Shown here: one piece after another, positions 16,910 through 35,611 of the stretch | Layout: each line of letters opens with the position of its first letter | Position numbering within the stretch: the stretch's first letter is position 1 | NCBI GenBank assembly: GCA_050261575.1 | Contig: JBLNDL010000063.1 | Coordinates: 1-54,762 of the forward strand | Direction of reading: 5' to 3' | DNA length: 54,762 nucleotides | DNA from: Sphingomonadaceae bacterium | GTDB taxonomy: Bacteria > Chloroflexota > UBA6077 | The notes under the pieces: generated by a model | The model's database searches: none | What the model was told of the DNA's origin: nothing | The model's input: only the letters and a program-made list of their open reading frames with translations | Made by a program: the position numbers and the translations under genes

Positions 16910-17599
16910 TCACGCGGCCGCCGGCCGCTGCCGCCTACCAGCGATGGTCAGCAGGTTCTCCACGTAGACCACGCCGGCGGTGTACCAGGCGTCCCTTTCG
17001 GCGGCCTGCCGCTCCTCCACGTTGGTGACCTGGCCCTGGAGCCGGACGGTGCCCGCCACCGACTTCACGGTGATCTGAGTGGGATCGGCGATGCGGGCAT
17101 CGCTGTCCAGGGCTGCGCGCACGTCCTGCTCGATCTCCGCATCGGGGCGCCGCCTGTCTGCGGAGACGGTGAGCTCGTTGGAGACGTCCACGACTCCATC
17201 CGTCTGCCAGGCGTCCTCCTCCGCGGCCCGCCGTTCCGCCTCGCTGGAGACGGTCCCCGAGAGGCGGACGATCCCTTCGGCGACGTTGACCACCACGCTC
17301 CGGTCGTCAACCCGGGGATCACGTTCCAGGGCGGATGCCACGTCGGCGGCGACCTGTTCCGCCGGCCGCAGGATGTCGGGCTTCACCTGGAGTTCGTTTC
17401 TCACCTCGGTGACCCCTTTGATCCGCCAGGCATCCTCGGCTGCCACCAGCCTGTCGACGTGGCGCGCTACCGTTCCGGAGAGGGTGACTATCCCTCGCTG
17501 TACCCGAACCGAGATGCCCTCGGGCCGGAGACGGGAGTCGTGATTCAGGACTTCGAGGACCTCGCTGGCTATCCTCTGGTCGCTCTGGCTCTCGGGCAT
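16910..17599 (-). CDS. triple BON-domain protein
   Basis: Three repeats of GIVTLSGTV...AAEEDAW..GV..V.NEL; GGAGG upstream of ATG 17599. Confidence 0.92.
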   Translation of the reverse strand: MPESQSDQRIASEVLEVLNHDSRLRPEGISVRVQRGIVTLSGTVARHVDRLVAAEDAWRIKGVTEVRNELQVKPDILRPAEQVAADVASALERDPRVDDRSVVVNVAEGIVRLSGTVSSEAERRAAEEDAWQTDGVVDVSNELTVSADRRRPDAEIEQDVRAALDSDARIADPTQITVKSVAGTVRLQGQVTNVEERQAAERDAWYTAGVVYVENLLTIAGRRQRPAAA

Positions 17600-17698
17600 T
17601 GGTGAACGGCCCTCCGCAATAGAGCTCTCAGCCTTCAGCGATCCGCTTCCGACTCCTGCCCCGAGGCTGTCTGCGGATCGCAGCGCTGTAGCCACTCG

Positions 17699-17714
17699 AG
17701 CAACGAGTATGCCA
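17699..17714 (-). promoter_or_regulatory. sigma54 (-24/-12) promoter of the BON gene
   Basis: Minus strand TGGCATACTCGTTGCT. Confidence 0.8.
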
Positions 17715-17942
17715 CCGGCGAACGGCGGGGAACGATCCAACGATCGGCCCGTTCCCAGCCGTCGAACGGCTGGCCGTCCACTCGCCCGAGTGGGGTGGCG
17801 GGGAACGCAGCCATCGGCCTTTCCGTGGGTGTGCTTGGCGGGCGAGCGGATGCCCCCTCGCAAGCTGTCTGAATGGGAGACGATTCGGTCGCCGGACCAC
17901 ATCAACGTTGATGCATCGACTGTGCCAATGGGCAAACCGGGT

Positions 17943-17958
17943 GGGCATCGATCGTGCG
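17943..17958 (+). promoter_or_regulatory. possible distal sigma54 promoter of the rRNA operon
   Basis: GGGCATCGATCGTGCG, GG-N10-GC. Confidence 0.45.
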
Positions 17959-18018
17959 GTGCCTGCCCGGTCCGTGAGAAGGGGCACTGGCCCCGGGGGC
18001 ATCCCGAGGCGGAACCCC

Positions 18019-18034
18019 TGGCACGGTCCCTGCT
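18019..18034 (+). promoter_or_regulatory. sigma54 promoter P1 of the rRNA operon
   Basis: TGGCACGGTCCCTGCT. Confidence 0.75.
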
Positions 18035-18111
18035 TAAGTCAGAGGTCTTTCCGGCCGATGGGTCGGAGGGGCGGTTCCTCCAGAGAAGGGGGGACGGGGC
18101 AGGGGTTCCGG

Positions 18112-18127
18112 TGGCACCGATCGTGCA
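18112..18127 (+). promoter_or_regulatory. sigma54 promoter P2 of the rRNA operon
   Basis: TGGCACCGATCGTGCA; predicted +1 near 18138, just ahead of the leader hairpin and boxA-like GAACCTTAACAG. Confidence 0.75.
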
Positions 18128-18220
18128 CTTGACATAACCGGTCAGGGTCGCGAGGGGCGACCGGCGCGAACCTTAACAGCCGAACAGTGGTGAGAGGGTG
18201 TGGCGCCTCGAAGAGAGGCT

Positions 18221-19823
18221 TTTCCGGTGGGTTTGATCCTGGCCCAGGACGAACGCTGGCGGCGTGCCTAGTACATGCGAGTCGTACGGGCCGGCGAAAG
18301 CTGGCCAGTGGCAGACGCTCGAGTAACACGTGGGCAACCTACCCCCAAGCGGCGGACATTCGGCCGAAAGGCCGGTAAATCCGCCATGTGGTCGCCTGGC
18401 ACTAGGCCTGGCGGCTAAAGCCGATGAGGCGTTTGGGGAGGGACCCGCGGCCCATCAGGTCGTTGGTGGGGTAACGGCCCACCAAGCCGATGACGGGTAG
18501 CTGGTCTGAGAGGACGGCCAGCCTTGCGGGGACTGAGACAGGGCCCCGACTCCTACGGGAGGCAGCAGTATGGGATCTTGCGCAATGGGCGAAAGCCTGA
18601 CGCAGCGACGCCGCGTGGAGGAAGAAGGCCTTCGGGTCGTAAACTCCTTTTGCCGGGGAAGAAGGCCCGATACCAGCGCTCGAGAGCGGGCCATTAGCGT
18701 CCGAAGCTGATGGCCGGAGCGATGGTTCACGTCGGGCTTGACGGTACCCGGCGAATAAGCCCCGACCAACTACGTGTCAGCAGTCGCGGCAATACGTGGG
18801 GGGCGAGCGTTGTCCGGATTCATTGGGCGTAAAGAGCGCGTAGGTGGTGGCACCCGTCGGCCGTGAAAGCCCTCGGCTCAACCGAGGAAGGGCGGCCGAT
18901 ACCGTGTCGCTTGGAGGACGGCAGGGGGAGGCGGAACTCCCGGTGGAGCGGTAATATGCGTTGATATCGGGAAGAACCTCAGTGGCGAAGGCGGCCTCCT
19001 AGACCGTTCCTGACGCTGAGGCGCGAAGGCGTGGGGAGCGAGCGGGATTAGGAAACCCCGTTAGTCCACGCAGTAAACGATGGGCACTAGGTCCGGGGGG
19101 CATTGACCCCTTCCGGGTCGAAGCTAACGCGTTAAGTGCCCCGCCTGGGGACATACGGCCGCAAGGCTGAAACCCAAAGGAATTGACGAAGACCCACACA
19201 AGCGGCGGAGCACGTGGTTTAATCCGAATCGGACCGTAGAACCTTACCAGGGCTGGATGTCGGGAGTAGGAACCGGAAACGGGGACGACCCGTAAAGGCG
19301 GGGACCGGCACAGGGCTGAATGGCTGTTGTCAGTTCGTGTCGTGAGACGTTGGGCTCAGCCCCACAACGAGCGAAACCCTCGCTGCTAGTTAGCCGTCGT
19401 CAAACGGCTTCTCTAGCGGGACCGCCGGGTAACCGGGAGGAAGGAGGGGATGACTTCCAGTCGGCATGGCCTTGATGCCCTGGGCCTCACACGTGCTACA
19501 ATGGCCGGTACAAAGGGCTGCCAAGCCGCGAGGCGGAGCTAAACCCAAAAAGCCGGCCTCAGTTGGGATTGCAGGCTGCAACTCGCCTGCATGAACGTGG
19601 AGCCGCTAGTAACCGCCGGTCAGCGAAACGGCGGTGAATGTGTCCCTGGGTCTCGCACACCTAGTCCGCCGTGTCCTGGGTGCCTTCCCGCGCCGAAGCC
19701 CCGCTTGCCCCCACTGTCTGAGTGGACCATGGGGACGGCAGGGCGAGGGCGGGACAGGTGACCGAGGACACGGGCGTAGCAAGGTGGTCGTACCGGAAGG
19801 TGCGGCGGAAATCTGCCTTTTCC
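18221..19823 (+). rRNA. rrs: 16S rRNA, highly divergent variant
   Basis: Colinear 16S landmarks (TTTGATCCTGGC, ACTCCTACGGGAGGCAGCAG, 530 loop, AAAGGAATTGAC, h45 GGAA loop) with many substitutions at invariant sites; ends approximate. Confidence 0.95.
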
Positions 19824-19988
19824 GGCAGAACGGCCGGGTCGATCCCCGGCGTTCCGTCCGGACAGTCTCGAAGCCTCTGATGCAGTCTCTCCAAGAGGCG
19901 CTCCACCCTCTCACCATTGTCGGCCGAGGGGTCGCATGTCCAGCACCTTTACAACCAGATAGCTTTCATTCCGCTCACGAGTCAGCAG

Positions 19989-23017
<3,029 letters not shown>

Positions 23018-23087
23018 TGGTGCTCGGCGGCAATGGAAGCTATCTGGTTGGAAAGGTGACGGTACAGCGGCCCTTACACTCTTTGCT

Positions 23088-23126
23088 CAGGGGCGCCACC
23101 TGCGTTAGAGGCTGGTGGCGCCCCTG
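23088..23126 (+). terminator. 13-bp stem hairpin after 23S, no U-tract
   Basis: CAGGGGCGCCACC / GGTGGCGCCCCTG. Confidence 0.5.
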
Positions 23127-23154
23127 CGTCTGTCGAGCGGCGGAGGAGAGCAGA

Positions 23155-23445
23155 ATGGCCATGCGACTCTACGTCGGGAACCTCCCCGACGACGTGAAGG
23201 ACGAGGACCTCATTGCCCTGTTCGGGCAGGCGGGCACCGTGCAGTCGGCTGAGGTGGTCCGCCAGACCACCGGACAGTCCGCCGGATACGGTTTCGTCGA
23301 GATGGCATCCGACACCGAGGCCGAGGATGCCATCCGGGCCTTCAACGGCTACATGTTGGACGGCAACGAGATCGAGGTGAGGGTCGCGACTCCGGAGGGG
23401 ATCGGCTATCCCCCCAGCTACGGGGGGCTCACCTCGGAGGGGTGA
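23155..23445 (+). CDS. RRM (RNP-1/RNP-2) RNA-binding protein
   Basis: RNP2 LYVGNL, RNP1 AGYGFVEM, AIRAFNG; GGAGGAG RBS. Confidence 0.95.
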   Translation: MAMRLYVGNLPDDVKDEDLIALFGQAGTVQSAEVVRQTTGQSAGYGFVEMASDTEAEDAIRAFNGYMLDGNEIEVRVATPEGIGYPPSYGGLTSEG

Positions 23446-25179: not shown

Positions 25180-25635
25180 CTACGCCGCCTTCTCGGCGGG
25201 ACCTTCTCGGTGGGCTTGCTGCTCGGTGCGGCTGCGCACCTCTTCCTGGATGTCCAGCAGCTCGTCGACGTCGACGGGAACGGTGCGCCGGACCGTCTCG
25301 CTCGGGTGGCTGAGCCGCTTCCAGTGGGTTTCGTTTCGCTTGTCGGAAAGGAGGTGCTGGACTTGCCTCTCCAGCTCGGCCGCCACATTGACGAGGCCGC
25401 TCTCCAGGGTCTCCGCGTTCGCGCTGGCGAAGAACCGGTCGCCGGGGAGTTCCAGCACCACTCTGACGTTGTAGAACAGGTCGGTCACCGGTAGGCGGAT
25501 CAGCCGGACAGCGGCCATAACCGAATCGGACGGGTAGTCCTGGAGAAGGTGGTTCAGCAGCCCCAGCTTCTCGCGCACCAGCGCCTGCACCGCATCGGTG
25601 AGGTCCAGATCCTTGACGTGGATTTGAAAGTACAT
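25180..25635 (-). CDS. HPF/RaiA (ribosome hibernation factor) family protein with C-terminal extension
   Basis: IHVKDLDLTDAVQALVREKL, LELPG..FFASANAETLESGL...LERQV. Confidence 0.85.
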   Translation of the reverse strand: MYFQIHVKDLDLTDAVQALVREKLGLLNHLLQDYPSDSVMAAVRLIRLPVTDLFYNVRVVLELPGDRFFASANAETLESGLVNVAAELERQVQHLLSDKRNETHWKRLSHPSETVRRTVPVDVDELLDIQEEVRSRTEQQAHREGPAEKAA

Positions 25636-25678
25636 GGCGCCCCCTTTCTCCCTTACCCTCTGGGAGGAGGTTCGATTG

Positions 25679-26260
25679 TCAGTCGCGTGCCCATCTCACC
25701 CGTGTGAAGGTCTCGAAGGGCAGCCGCTGCACCGTTAGCCTGCCCTTGAAGGCGCTTCTGAGCCCGCTCCCTATCCGTCGCGCCAGCGCCTGGCTGGTGG
25801 TGAGGATGTAGATGTAGTCTTCTCTGTCGTGAACGGCGGCAAGCCGGGCCGTGGGATTCGTGGCGCGCGCACGCTTCTCCTCGTTGCGCACCCAGTTCAG
25901 CACCTCCTCCTTGTGGTCCTGCATCCACTTCCCCCGAAGCACCACCTCTCCGTCGTACATCTGGCGCTGGATCCGCTGGTCGGCCGGGCACAACTCCACC
26001 CGCACGTTGGGGTCGTGCCGGAGGCGCCGGTACTCCTCCTCGTCCAGATGCCAGAGCTTGCCGTCGGAGATGGCGTGGCACACCGGGCAGATCGTCCGGC
26101 GGGGCGCGGCATTGGGGCCTTCGAACCCCTTGGCTGGGTAGTTCCACTTCTGCGTCTCGCCTTCCACCGGCCACTGGGCCTCGTGCCAGGTTGGCTCAAC
26201 TCGCCCCGGCAGGATCGGCCGGGTCCCCGACTTGACCGCGGGGGTGCGAACTCTACGCAT
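25679..26260 (-). CDS. BCAM0308-family zinc-ribbon protein
   Basis: CPVCHAI..GKLW, CPADQRI, GEVVLRG, NPTARL, TTSQALARRIG, RVRW. Confidence 0.8.
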   Translation of the reverse strand: MRRVRTPAVKSGTRPILPGRVEPTWHEAQWPVEGETQKWNYPAKGFEGPNAAPRRTICPVCHAISDGKLWHLDEEEYRRLRHDPNVRVELCPADQRIQRQMYDGEVVLRGKWMQDHKEEVLNWVRNEEKRARATNPTARLAAVHDREDYIYILTTSQALARRIGSGLRSAFKGRLTVQRLPFETFTRVRWARD

Positions 26261-26263
26261 GTC

Positions 26264-27106
26264 TTACCTCCCCGTCGAGAGATGGGTTCTGGCCTGGAAA
26301 TCGCGGAACAGGGTGTGGTCCACCTCCAGGTGGGCTCGAACGGCGCGGATACCGGCGATGTCGCTGAGGATGCGACGTATCCGCCGGGCGTCGGCGAGGG
26401 ACTGGACCTTGCCGTTGATCTCGACCGCTCCGTCGACGACGCGCATCTCCTGATCCATCACCACGATGTCGTTCGTAGCCAGGGCCTGGGAGGCCAGGCT
26501 GAACAGGTCGATGTCGTCCGTGTACTCGGGCATGGCAACCTTGATGTTGGAGACCACACCGCGTATCCCCTTGACGTCGGCGGCCGTTCGGACGGCGCGC
26601 TCCTGGTCGGACAGCTTCTGTGCGGTCCCCATCAACCGGGCTATGCCGTGGGAGACTCGGGATCCGACCCACTCGAAGCCGGAGGAGTCCAGCCGCGCCC
26701 GCACCTTCTCGTCGAGGTCTTCGTCGCTGAGGTAGCCGTCCGCCGCCACGGTGAGGGCATTCTGGACCAGCTCGACGCCCGGGATCGACTCCACCAGTTC
26801 CTCTGCGTCCATCTTCTGGCCCGCGCAATCCACCACGCCGGAGAGGATGGCGATGCGACCCTCGGTCTTGACGGTTATCCGGTCGTCCAGCCCGTCGCCC
26901 AGATCCACCCGGCCGTCCGCGGCCAGGGCAATGAGTGCCTGACCGGAGATCTCCTGATCCGCCAGGCTGCTACCTACCTTGCGGTCGGCCAGCCGTCGAT
27001 CGTCCAGGCTTCCTCGCTCATCGGGCTCGTGGAGGGTGGTGTCGGTGGGAGGGTAGGGTTCCCGTGCGAGTGCATCCTTCTCGTACTCTCGTGGTGACTC
27101 CATCAT
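26264..27106 (-). CDS. triple BON-domain protein
   Basis: Three BON-like repeats (LSGVVD...IPGVELVQNAL; GIRGVVSNI; GIRAVRAHL). Confidence 0.88.
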   Translation of the reverse strand: MMESPREYEKDALAREPYPPTDTTLHEPDERGSLDDRRLADRKVGSSLADQEISGQALIALAADGRVDLGDGLDDRITVKTEGRIAILSGVVDCAGQKMDAEELVESIPGVELVQNALTVAADGYLSDEDLDEKVRARLDSSGFEWVGSRVSHGIARLMGTAQKLSDQERAVRTAADVKGIRGVVSNIKVAMPEYTDDIDLFSLASQALATNDIVVMDQEMRVVDGAVEINGKVQSLADARRIRRILSDIAGIRAVRAHLEVDHTLFRDFQARTHLSTGR

Positions 27107-31271: not shown

Positions 31272-31287
31272 CGCAAGGGTCGTGCCC
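31272..31287 (-). promoter_or_regulatory. sigma54 promoter of the hypothetical-pdhABC operon
   Basis: Minus strand GGGCACGACCCTTGCG. Confidence 0.7.
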
Positions 31288-35573: not shown

Positions 35574-35589
35574 AGCAACGGCCGTGCCA
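35574..35589 (-). promoter_or_regulatory. sigma54 promoter of the two hypothetical genes
   Basis: Minus strand TGGCACGGCCGTTGCT, full consensus. Confidence 0.85.
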
Positions 35590-35595
35590 GCAAAC

Positions 35596-35611
35596 TGGCA
35601 CTGGACTTGCT
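35596..35611 (+). promoter_or_regulatory. sigma54 promoter of the GH94 gene
   Basis: TGGCACTGGACTTGCT, full consensus. Confidence 0.85.

Follow-up and report, generated by a model that had tools for sequence, protein, structure and literature searches.

The rrn operons of bacteria are transcribed by the primary sigma factor from promoters that are under growth-rate control, and in Escherichia coli and other bacteria two such promoters, P1 and P2, lie about 100 nt apart, followed by a leader with a boxA-like element, processing helices, and the 16S and 23S genes. To our knowledge, the sigma54 regulons described so far consist of protein-coding genes together with a few small RNAs, and a full-text literature search combining sigma54 with rRNA operons or promoters found no description of an rrn operon under sigma54. 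In the available parts of a 2025 survey of sigma54 regulons (PMC12316311) rRNA appears as a phylogenetic marker only, and a term search of that text found no Chloroflexota. For the Rrp2-RpoN-RpoS pathway of Borreliella, the accessible portion of the source describes classical sigma54 promoters that depend on one master activator (PMC11109971).

Operons of differing rRNA sequence within one genome, some of them expressed under particular conditions, are found in Scytonema hyalinum, in E. coli (rrsH) and in Plasmodium. In the latter the rRNAs are stage-specific. The divergent operon of S. hyalinum is called, in the part of the article available, the highest heterogeneity in any prokaryote, indels excluded (PMC5658200), and rrsH is presented in the accessible text as a case of intragenomic rRNA heterogeneity (PMC6312700). 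A different situation is that of the genomes devoid of the anti-Shine-Dalgarno core; according to the portion of the source at hand (PMC3457768), all their 16S copies lack it and the Shine-Dalgarno sequences vanish genome-wide.

The window analyzed here is a stretch of 54,762 nt that represents contig C63 of the metagenome-assembled genome of an uncultured soil bacterium assigned to the Chloroflexota (G000; 3.72 Mb in 103 contigs). It carries on the plus strand a divergent 16S-like rRNA gene of 1600 nt (18221-19820; RF00177, 1218.9 bits over the full model) and a divergent 23S-like rRNA gene of 3031 nt (19989-23019; RF02541, 2185.1 bits). The general plan is that of the E. coli P1/P2 operons, given that two promoter-like elements about 100 nt apart precede a boxA-like leader, processing helices and the order 16S-23S; in contrast, these elements are of the -24/-12 (RpoN) class and not of the -35/-10 (primary sigma) class. 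The operon also differs from the usual bacterial one by the absence of a primary-sigma promoter, a 5S gene and a spacer tRNA; neither a 5S gene nor a spacer tRNA was found in the window, and the 5S genes of this genome are placed on contigs C74 and C56. From the comparisons described below we consider it likely, with good confidence, that this is an ancient and altered 16S-23S paralogue driven by sigma54-type promoters, and that the canonical operons of these bacteria keep sigma70-type promoters.

The 620-nt region at 17600-18220 lies between the 16S gene and a minus-strand gene for a three-BON-domain, OsmY-like protein (16910-17599; PF04972, 155.8 bits, and a match to the OsmY model), and is a divergent intergenic region because this upstream gene runs on the minus strand. 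The distal sigma54-type element, P1, is TGGCACGGTCCCTGCT (18019-18034, plus strand; exact core at 18019-18033), with a predicted start near 18045, and the proximal element, P2, is TGGCACCGATCGTGCA (18112-18127, plus strand; exact core at 18112-18126), with a predicted start near 18138. Both show the GG and GC doublets ten bases apart within a TGGCAC-N6-TGC core and point toward the 16S gene, 202 and 109 nt 5' of which they are located in the window. The first-pass annotation had proposed that tandem sigma54 promoters 93 nt apart precede the operon, and the two motifs were indeed found at this distance, on the plus strand and with exact cores. It had also proposed a weaker third site upstream. 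The sequence, GGGCATCGATCGTGCG (17942-17957, plus strand), is present, but because it has two mismatches in the -24 element, was not recovered in a screen allowing at most one mismatch, and has no counterpart in the closest relative, G004, a promoter role for it is not supported by these comparisons. On the minus strand, an exact core (17913-17927) faces the divergently transcribed BON-domain gene, and a site with one mismatch (17700-17714) lies about 100 nt before the start of the same gene.

A consensus scan with a threshold of at least 9 of 12 matches gave no sigma70 site in 17300-18300, and none therefore in the intergenic region, which bears out the earlier statement that no -35/-10 pair precedes this operon. 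The window contains 6 copies of the TGGCAC-N6-TGC core; the expectation obtained with 100 dinucleotide-preserving shuffles is 0.64 ± 0.82, and none of them reached 6. At the genomic level, the spacing of six nucleotides is clearly preferred: 85 cores have it, and the spacings N4, N5, N7 and N8 give 24, 23, 25 and 21. According to the rough ORF calls made in this analysis, about 51 of the 85 cores lie between -200 and +250 from the start of an ORF on the same strand, 40 are intergenic, and 32 fall within same-strand ORFs, many of which correspond to over-extended 5' ends. The P1 and P2 motifs are not chance occurrences.

The genome encodes a single RpoN (contig C53; 472 aa), which is complete and includes PF00309, PF04963 and PF04552 (the AID, CBD and DBD regions). 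It also encodes one convincing enhancer-binding protein, of the NtrC type with a REC-AAA+-HTH_8 organization (PF00158, 251.8 bits); three further matches to PF00158, in ORFs of 830-875 aa, have scores of 24-32 bits, and the one that was checked is a Clp-type ATPase. With the core used genome-wide, and RpoN and an activator encoded, the assignment of these motifs to the sigma54 class in the first-pass annotation is well founded. Both the GG-N10-GC architecture and the presence of a single enhancer-binding protein for the regulon are shared with the Rrp2-RpoN system of Borreliella.

The genes located 3' of sigma54 sites were annotated (n=49), and 14 of them had no Pfam match. The putative regulon includes Lon, a ClpB/C-type ATPase, HtrA, superoxide dismutase, a thioredoxin-reductase-like protein, BON-domain proteins and GreA, along with PBP1, an L,D-transpeptidase, D-Ala-D-Ala ligase, a site-2 protease, GAF/PAS kinases and response regulators; judged by these annotations, it looks like a stress and envelope regulon. 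Directly upstream of rpoN (C53:29424-32590) there is a gene for a GAF-histidine kinase, which is itself preceded by a sigma54 core. This arrangement suggests that rpoN may be autoregulated and makes the kinase a candidate for the sensor of the regulon. No k-mer that could represent an enhancer motif was convincingly enriched in the 210 nt preceding 53 sigma54 sites. Elsewhere in the window, an ORF of 130 aa (minus strand) and a gene encoding a GH94 glycoside phosphorylase (plus strand) are separated by two exact sigma54 cores in a back-to-back arrangement, one on each strand (35575-35610); this looks like a divergent sigma54 promoter pair.

Downstream of P2 the region has the organization of an rRNA precursor. 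The 16S processing helix forms between the leader (18140-18220) and the spacer (19883-19961), and the energy of this RNA duplex is -96.8, against -69.8 ± 5.7 in 200 shuffles; the 5' strand of the 23S helix (19901-19987) pairs with its 3' strand at 23020-23118 (-94.5, against -56.2 ± 5.6 in 200 shuffles). The spacer (19883-19987, plus strand) carries one strand of each helix, the 3' strand for the 16S and the 5' strand for the 23S, together with a second boxA-like element (approximately 19944-19956). An element located 3' of the proximal site and 5' of the 16S gene, CCTTAACAG (18166-18181, plus strand, with its narrower limits at about 18171-18179), is taken here to be a boxA-like antitermination element, and elements homologous to it, CTTAACAA and CTTACCAA, are present in the leaders of the relatives, in operons of both the canonical and the divergent type. 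In its architecture, the predicted transcript looks like a true pre-rRNA. Since the leader processing helix is intact, transcription should come from upstream of approximately 18140, where only the -24/-12 elements occur.

Public RNA runs were also inspected. Six of them contained 8-11% of the sampled words and four were compared with the window; no cover of 17400-18215 was found in them, only conserved rRNA stretches were covered, and the loose ends continued into sequence unlike the window, which is consistent with rRNA of other organisms. A 229-nt RNA contig (X11) matches 19122-19350 with 16 differences; it may represent the divergent 16S of a relative and is unable to show transcription of the operon in the window.

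The 16S gene of the window is 74-78% identical to the 16S genes of other genomes in its own order and 89% identical to that of G004, which belongs to the same family, and its Rfam score of 1218.9 bits is to be compared with 1380-1545 for most relatives. Across the 66 genomes of the class the scores of the full-length 16S genes are bimodal, with a canonical group at 1380-1545 bits and a divergent group at 1167-1234 bits, the latter with lengths of 1543-1761 nt; G005, at 1229.6 bits, was counted as canonical because its gene is only 1275 nt long, and it is 86-89% identical to canonical genes. Among 151 genomes sampled from the phylum, all full-length 16S genes from outside the class scored 1410-1585 bits. 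The divergent type was found in G000, G004, G039, G041 (C42), G043 (C69) and G045, and a partial low-scoring copy in G047; the closed genomes of the class (G062 and G063) have neither rpoN nor the divergent operon. Two insertions were observed in these genes: one of about 75 nt at 18660-18740 of the window, which is missing from the G004 copy in spite of its 89% identity, and a different, large one near the 3' end of the divergent 16S of G041, which reaches a total of 1761 nt.

The evidence that the two types share a genome comes from four metagenome bins. G041 and G043 have both 16S types on different long contigs. In G039 the divergent type lies within a contig of 76.9 kb, two contigs end in identical canonical 16S starts, and two open with a 23S end. 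In G000, contig C74 opens within a different 23S, truncated by the contig boundary so that its final 125 nt remain, 83% identical to the 23S end of the window; a 5S gene and two tRNAs follow. C18 opens with the same 23S end (C18:1-121), 121 nt at 100% identity to C74, and a further 5S lies within C56:51885-52001. When two contigs open with an identical rRNA end, this usually indicates canonical operons that are repeated and were left unassembled, and given that C74 and C18 share such an end, the canonical rrn of the G000 bin corresponds to unassembled repeats; no canonical 16S piece was found in the G000 assembly.

It could be argued that the sigma54 sites are real and that this is simply the sole rrn operon of a fast-evolving lineage, the canonical rRNA pieces being contamination. 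In favour of this, every genome in which the divergent type occurs is a metagenome bin, with contamination estimated at 2-9%; a canonical 16S is lacking from the G000 assembly, and in G004 and G045 the divergent type alone was found. Nevertheless, four separate bins hold both types, and G000 and G039 each have two contigs bounded by identical canonical rRNA ends, the signature of a repeat in one genome; moreover, the changes in the decoding centre and the peptidyl-transferase region (see below) are hard to reconcile with an only ribosome, and both halves of the 16S tree follow the family codes. We regard this possibility as quite unlikely.

In a maximum-likelihood tree of 20 sequences, one branch divides the divergent from the canonical genes with a support of 100/99. 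A clade of family f10 is present on both sides, and so is family f1, represented by G000 and G004 among the divergent genes and by G003 among the canonical ones. As both sides follow the family codes, the tree fits one old duplication that was followed by vertical descent. Within f10, the branch length between the divergent genes of G041 and G043 is about 0.22, and that of their canonical pair is 0.11; the paralogue therefore evolves about twice as fast, which is far from neutral evolution. A mis-assembly or a foreign contig was ruled out by the synteny of G004:C18 with the window from 8.8 to 22.9 kb, at about 57-93% identity at the protein level; the BON gene at 16910-17599 has a syntenic counterpart in G004 with 82% identity. 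For the canonical rrn locus of G003, the comparison of synteny with G000 gave only scattered matches and is uninformative. On the basis of these sequence comparisons, the operon is an ancient and strongly divergent paralogue of the canonical rrn, about 75% identical in 16S. This places its 16S divergence, of about 25%, far above that described in the available text for S. hyalinum (PMC5658200).

To compare the promoters, the operons were grouped by the Rfam score of the 16S gene and not by promoter, and one rule for each promoter class was applied to the 350 nt upstream of the 16S 5' anchor; the sigma54-like rule kept GG and GC and allowed at most one other mismatch. Each of the 7 divergent-type operons has a sigma54-like site between -115 and -136, and none has a sigma70-like site, whereas sigma70-like sites, often two in tandem, precede 25 of the 32 canonical loci. 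Only two of these 32 have sigma54-like sites, both weak (one at -313 with a CGC -12 element, the other at -220). One canonical locus belongs to G049, a genome flagged as unpublished, and when it is left out the numbers are 2/31 for sigma54-like and 24/31 for sigma70-like sites. In the comparison with the canonical rrn promoter that the first-pass annotation had proposed, the canonical operons of the relatives have clear tandem TTGACA/TAnnnT promoters, and there are none here. The rpoN gene is present in 7 of 7 genomes with the divergent type and in 43 of 66 in the class, a difference that is in keeping with sigma54 control but is not significant and involves three lineages only; G037, also flagged as unpublished, enters only this count.

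Of the upstream DNA, only the proximal site and the leader can be aligned between G000 and G004, and the flanks around the conserved -24/-12 element vary between genomes. A second site with at most one mismatch occurs in G004 at -236, compared with -216 in the window, and not at an aligned position, and the distal site P1 was not found in other families; from this, the tandem layout is common to the family of G000 and G004, and the class-wide feature is the proximal promoter only.

A working promoter of an unrecognized type, either for another alternative sigma factor or a non-consensus sigma70 promoter, could also account for transcription of the operon. A perfect TTGACA (18129-18134) lies directly 3' of the proximal site, it is kept in the same place in G004, and our promoter scans used simple consensus rules. 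However, neither genome has a TAnnnT hexamer 16-18 nt after it, TTGACA is absent from the other five divergent operons in contrast with the -24/-12 element, which is present in all 7, and the textbook sigma70 sites of the canonical operons of the class indicate that such sites are recognizable. This alternative seems unlikely to us. A further one is that the plus-strand sites serve to regulate the divergent BON gene, as a polymerase sink or a roadblock, and not to transcribe the rrn operon. The two minus-strand sites in the same intergenic region do face the BON gene, and BON genes flank divergent rrn operons in other genomes; still, in 7 of 7 operons the conserved sites point to the 16S gene and keep a fixed distance from it and not from the BON start, so that we give this idea hardly any credence.

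A loose pattern applied to public genomes (the core, a gap of 92-122 nt, and a 9-nt 16S anchor) corresponded, among the matches listed, to 16S starts in 2 of 120 loci. In L199 and L209, from two unrelated genomes, TGGCAC-N6-TGC lies in the leader of a canonical 16S, just 5' of boxA and downstream of a sigma70 promoter, and from this position it seems to be part of the leader and not a promoter; the motif can therefore occur in rrn leaders with no promoter role. As a separate observation, contig C19 of G010 carries a second copy of rpoN about 8 kb upstream of a canonical 16S start at the contig end, and the leader region of this 16S contains TGGCAC-N6-CGC at -313.

The rRNAs themselves have changed in their functional centres. 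The sites inspected were the 16S 3' domain and the 23S domain V, using Rfam alignments, together with class-wide column statistics. The 3' tail common to six canonical 16S genes is missing in the alignment from all six full divergent copies, and the tail of the window 16S reads CUGCC where the Rfam consensus has CCUCC, so the anti-Shine-Dalgarno sequence is lost. In the decoding region of helix 44, upper-case positions of the Rfam consensus are altered, presumably including 1492/1493 and the 1400-1408 strand in E. coli numbering. In the 23S domain V several upper-case consensus positions of the peptidyl-transferase loop and of the A-loop are altered, among them what we take to be 2447, 2585, 2602 and 2554/2555, and the sarcin-ricin loop is kept. 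Features expected of a translation-competent rRNA are thus missing at the anti-Shine-Dalgarno tail, the decoding-site nucleotides, the peptidyl-transferase loop and the A-loop. The first-pass annotation had suspected a variant RNA, and what was found is a third, divergent rrn copy in which these same centres are altered. Such an RNA may be toxic for the cell, as was also proposed. The loss of the CCUCC core from the 16S 3' tail is shared with the genomes described in the accessible part of PMC3457768; in contrast with them, the loss affects here only the paralogue, and the canonical 16S genes of the class keep the anti-Shine-Dalgarno sequence. Compared with the known cases of intragenomic heterogeneity, with which it has in common the coexistence of rRNA operons of differing sequence, the operon of the window is distinguished by rRNAs that are altered in functional centres and by a promoter class that differs between the copies.

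When the 968 columns that are invariant in ten canonical 16S genes of the class were considered, each divergent copy altered 13.2-15.0% of them, and the canonical genes, in a leave-one-out comparison, 0-5.4%. Twenty-eight columns are altered in all six divergent copies, and 15 of these have one common derived state. In the 5' 950 nt of the six divergent 16S genes, 268 pairs are predicted, of which 73 show changes on both sides with pairing retained; these compensatory changes imply that selection keeps the fold. They also bear on the proposal that this is a decaying, unexpressed pseudo-operon in which the motifs are incidental. The disappearance of the anti-Shine-Dalgarno tail, the alterations at decoding-site and peptidyl-transferase positions, and the 13-15% of class-invariant 16S columns that have changed are what decay would produce; in contrast, besides the compensated pairs, the branches are only about twice as long as those of canonical copies of the same family, the paralogue is kept in three families that span the class, at a conserved locus beside BON and BCAM0308 genes, the processing helices and boxA-like elements are intact, and the promoter element is conserved and its flanks are not. 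Decay appears to us very unlikely.

Several genes around the operon are related to stress or dormancy. The 23S gene adjoins an ORF for an RRM-domain RNA-binding protein (23020-23445, plus strand; PF00076, 76.2 bits, residues 50-118), which begins within the 3' strand of the 23S processing helix; its true start is probably later than 23020, and by its position the gene may be co-transcribed with the rRNA. As a conserved operon partner it was discarded, since it was not found beside other divergent operons. Farther downstream, on the minus strand, there are an HPF/S30AE-like gene (25180-25635), a BCAM0308-family gene (25679-26260; NF040826, 109.7 bits for a cut-off of 100) and a second BON gene (26264-27106), and genes for Hsp20 and a universal stress protein are also found around the operon. 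The BCAM0308-family protein shows in addition a weak Pfam match, below the cut-off, to NMD3, a ribosome-subunit export adaptor. A sigma54-like site with one mismatch (31273-31287, minus strand) precedes the string of minus-strand genes that ends in the BON, BCAM0308 and HPF-like genes, and a relaxed sigma54-like site also precedes the gene for the universal stress protein. In G039, G041 and G045 a BON and BCAM0308 pair lies directly upstream of the divergent rrn. By gene content and position, the row at 25180-27106 would be a dormancy-type module linked to the divergent rrn operons.

A comparable set of genes has been described in Burkholderia cenocepacia. Its low-oxygen-activated (lxa) locus is likened by the authors to the mycobacterial DosR dormancy regulon, and BCAM0307, a "phospholipid-binding protein", belongs to the lxa genes that are strongly induced (PMC3721108, in the available part). 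BCAM0308 is not named in the text of that article that was searched. The neighbourhood of the window operon resembles lxa in having BON, BCAM0308-family, small heat-shock and universal stress proteins; this likeness is one of gene content, and the accessible text of PMC3721108 describes neither an rRNA operon nor sigma54 promoters for lxa.

Taken as a mechanism, RNA polymerase with RpoN would bind 18112-18127, and in the family of G000 and G004 also 18019-18034, as a closed complex that would stay silent until the single NtrC-type enhancer-binding response regulator of the genome is activated. Transcription would then begin near 18138, and also near 18045, about 12 nt beyond the GC doublet as is usual for sigma54 promoters, and pass the boxA-like antitermination element, giving a precursor with intact processing helices around the 16S-like and 23S-like RNAs. 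Promoters of the -24/-12 class need an ATP-dependent activator, and for this reason basal activity should be almost nil and the control by growth rate and ppGpp should be absent. In this way the operon would escape growth-rate control and be linked instead to the sigma54 stress regulon of the organism, with its proteases, chaperones, envelope enzymes, oxidative-stress genes and dormancy genes of the BON, USP and Hsp20 types. We infer the start sites, the requirement for RpoN and its activator, the inducing signal and the function of the altered rRNAs. As a more tentative proposal, in which we have limited confidence, the altered rRNAs would be made only when the sole sigma54 activator fires, along with the BON, BCAM0308, HPF-like, Hsp20 and USP dormancy genes, and the product could be a ribosome-derived particle that does not carry out ordinary translation, either a specialized machine for a few messages, or an inert particle that, in dormancy, would store ribosomal proteins and factors or act as a decoy for them.

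A practical consequence concerns the identification of these bacteria. In metagenome bins the divergent copy assembles well and the canonical copies do not, and the divergent gene may pass for the 16S of the organism; given that the only assembled 16S of G000 is the divergent paralogue, it could mislead a taxonomy based on 16S. For the biology of the class, this is an rRNA paralogue far more divergent than any published intragenomic case that we found, and its helices have been kept by selection across the class. If it is wired to sigma54, it would be an rrn operon switched by a signal-dependent ATPase and otherwise fully off, and two long-standing questions would become testable: whether bacteria have ribosome-like particles of distinct function for use in stress or dormancy, and how growing cells may be spared from such RNAs.
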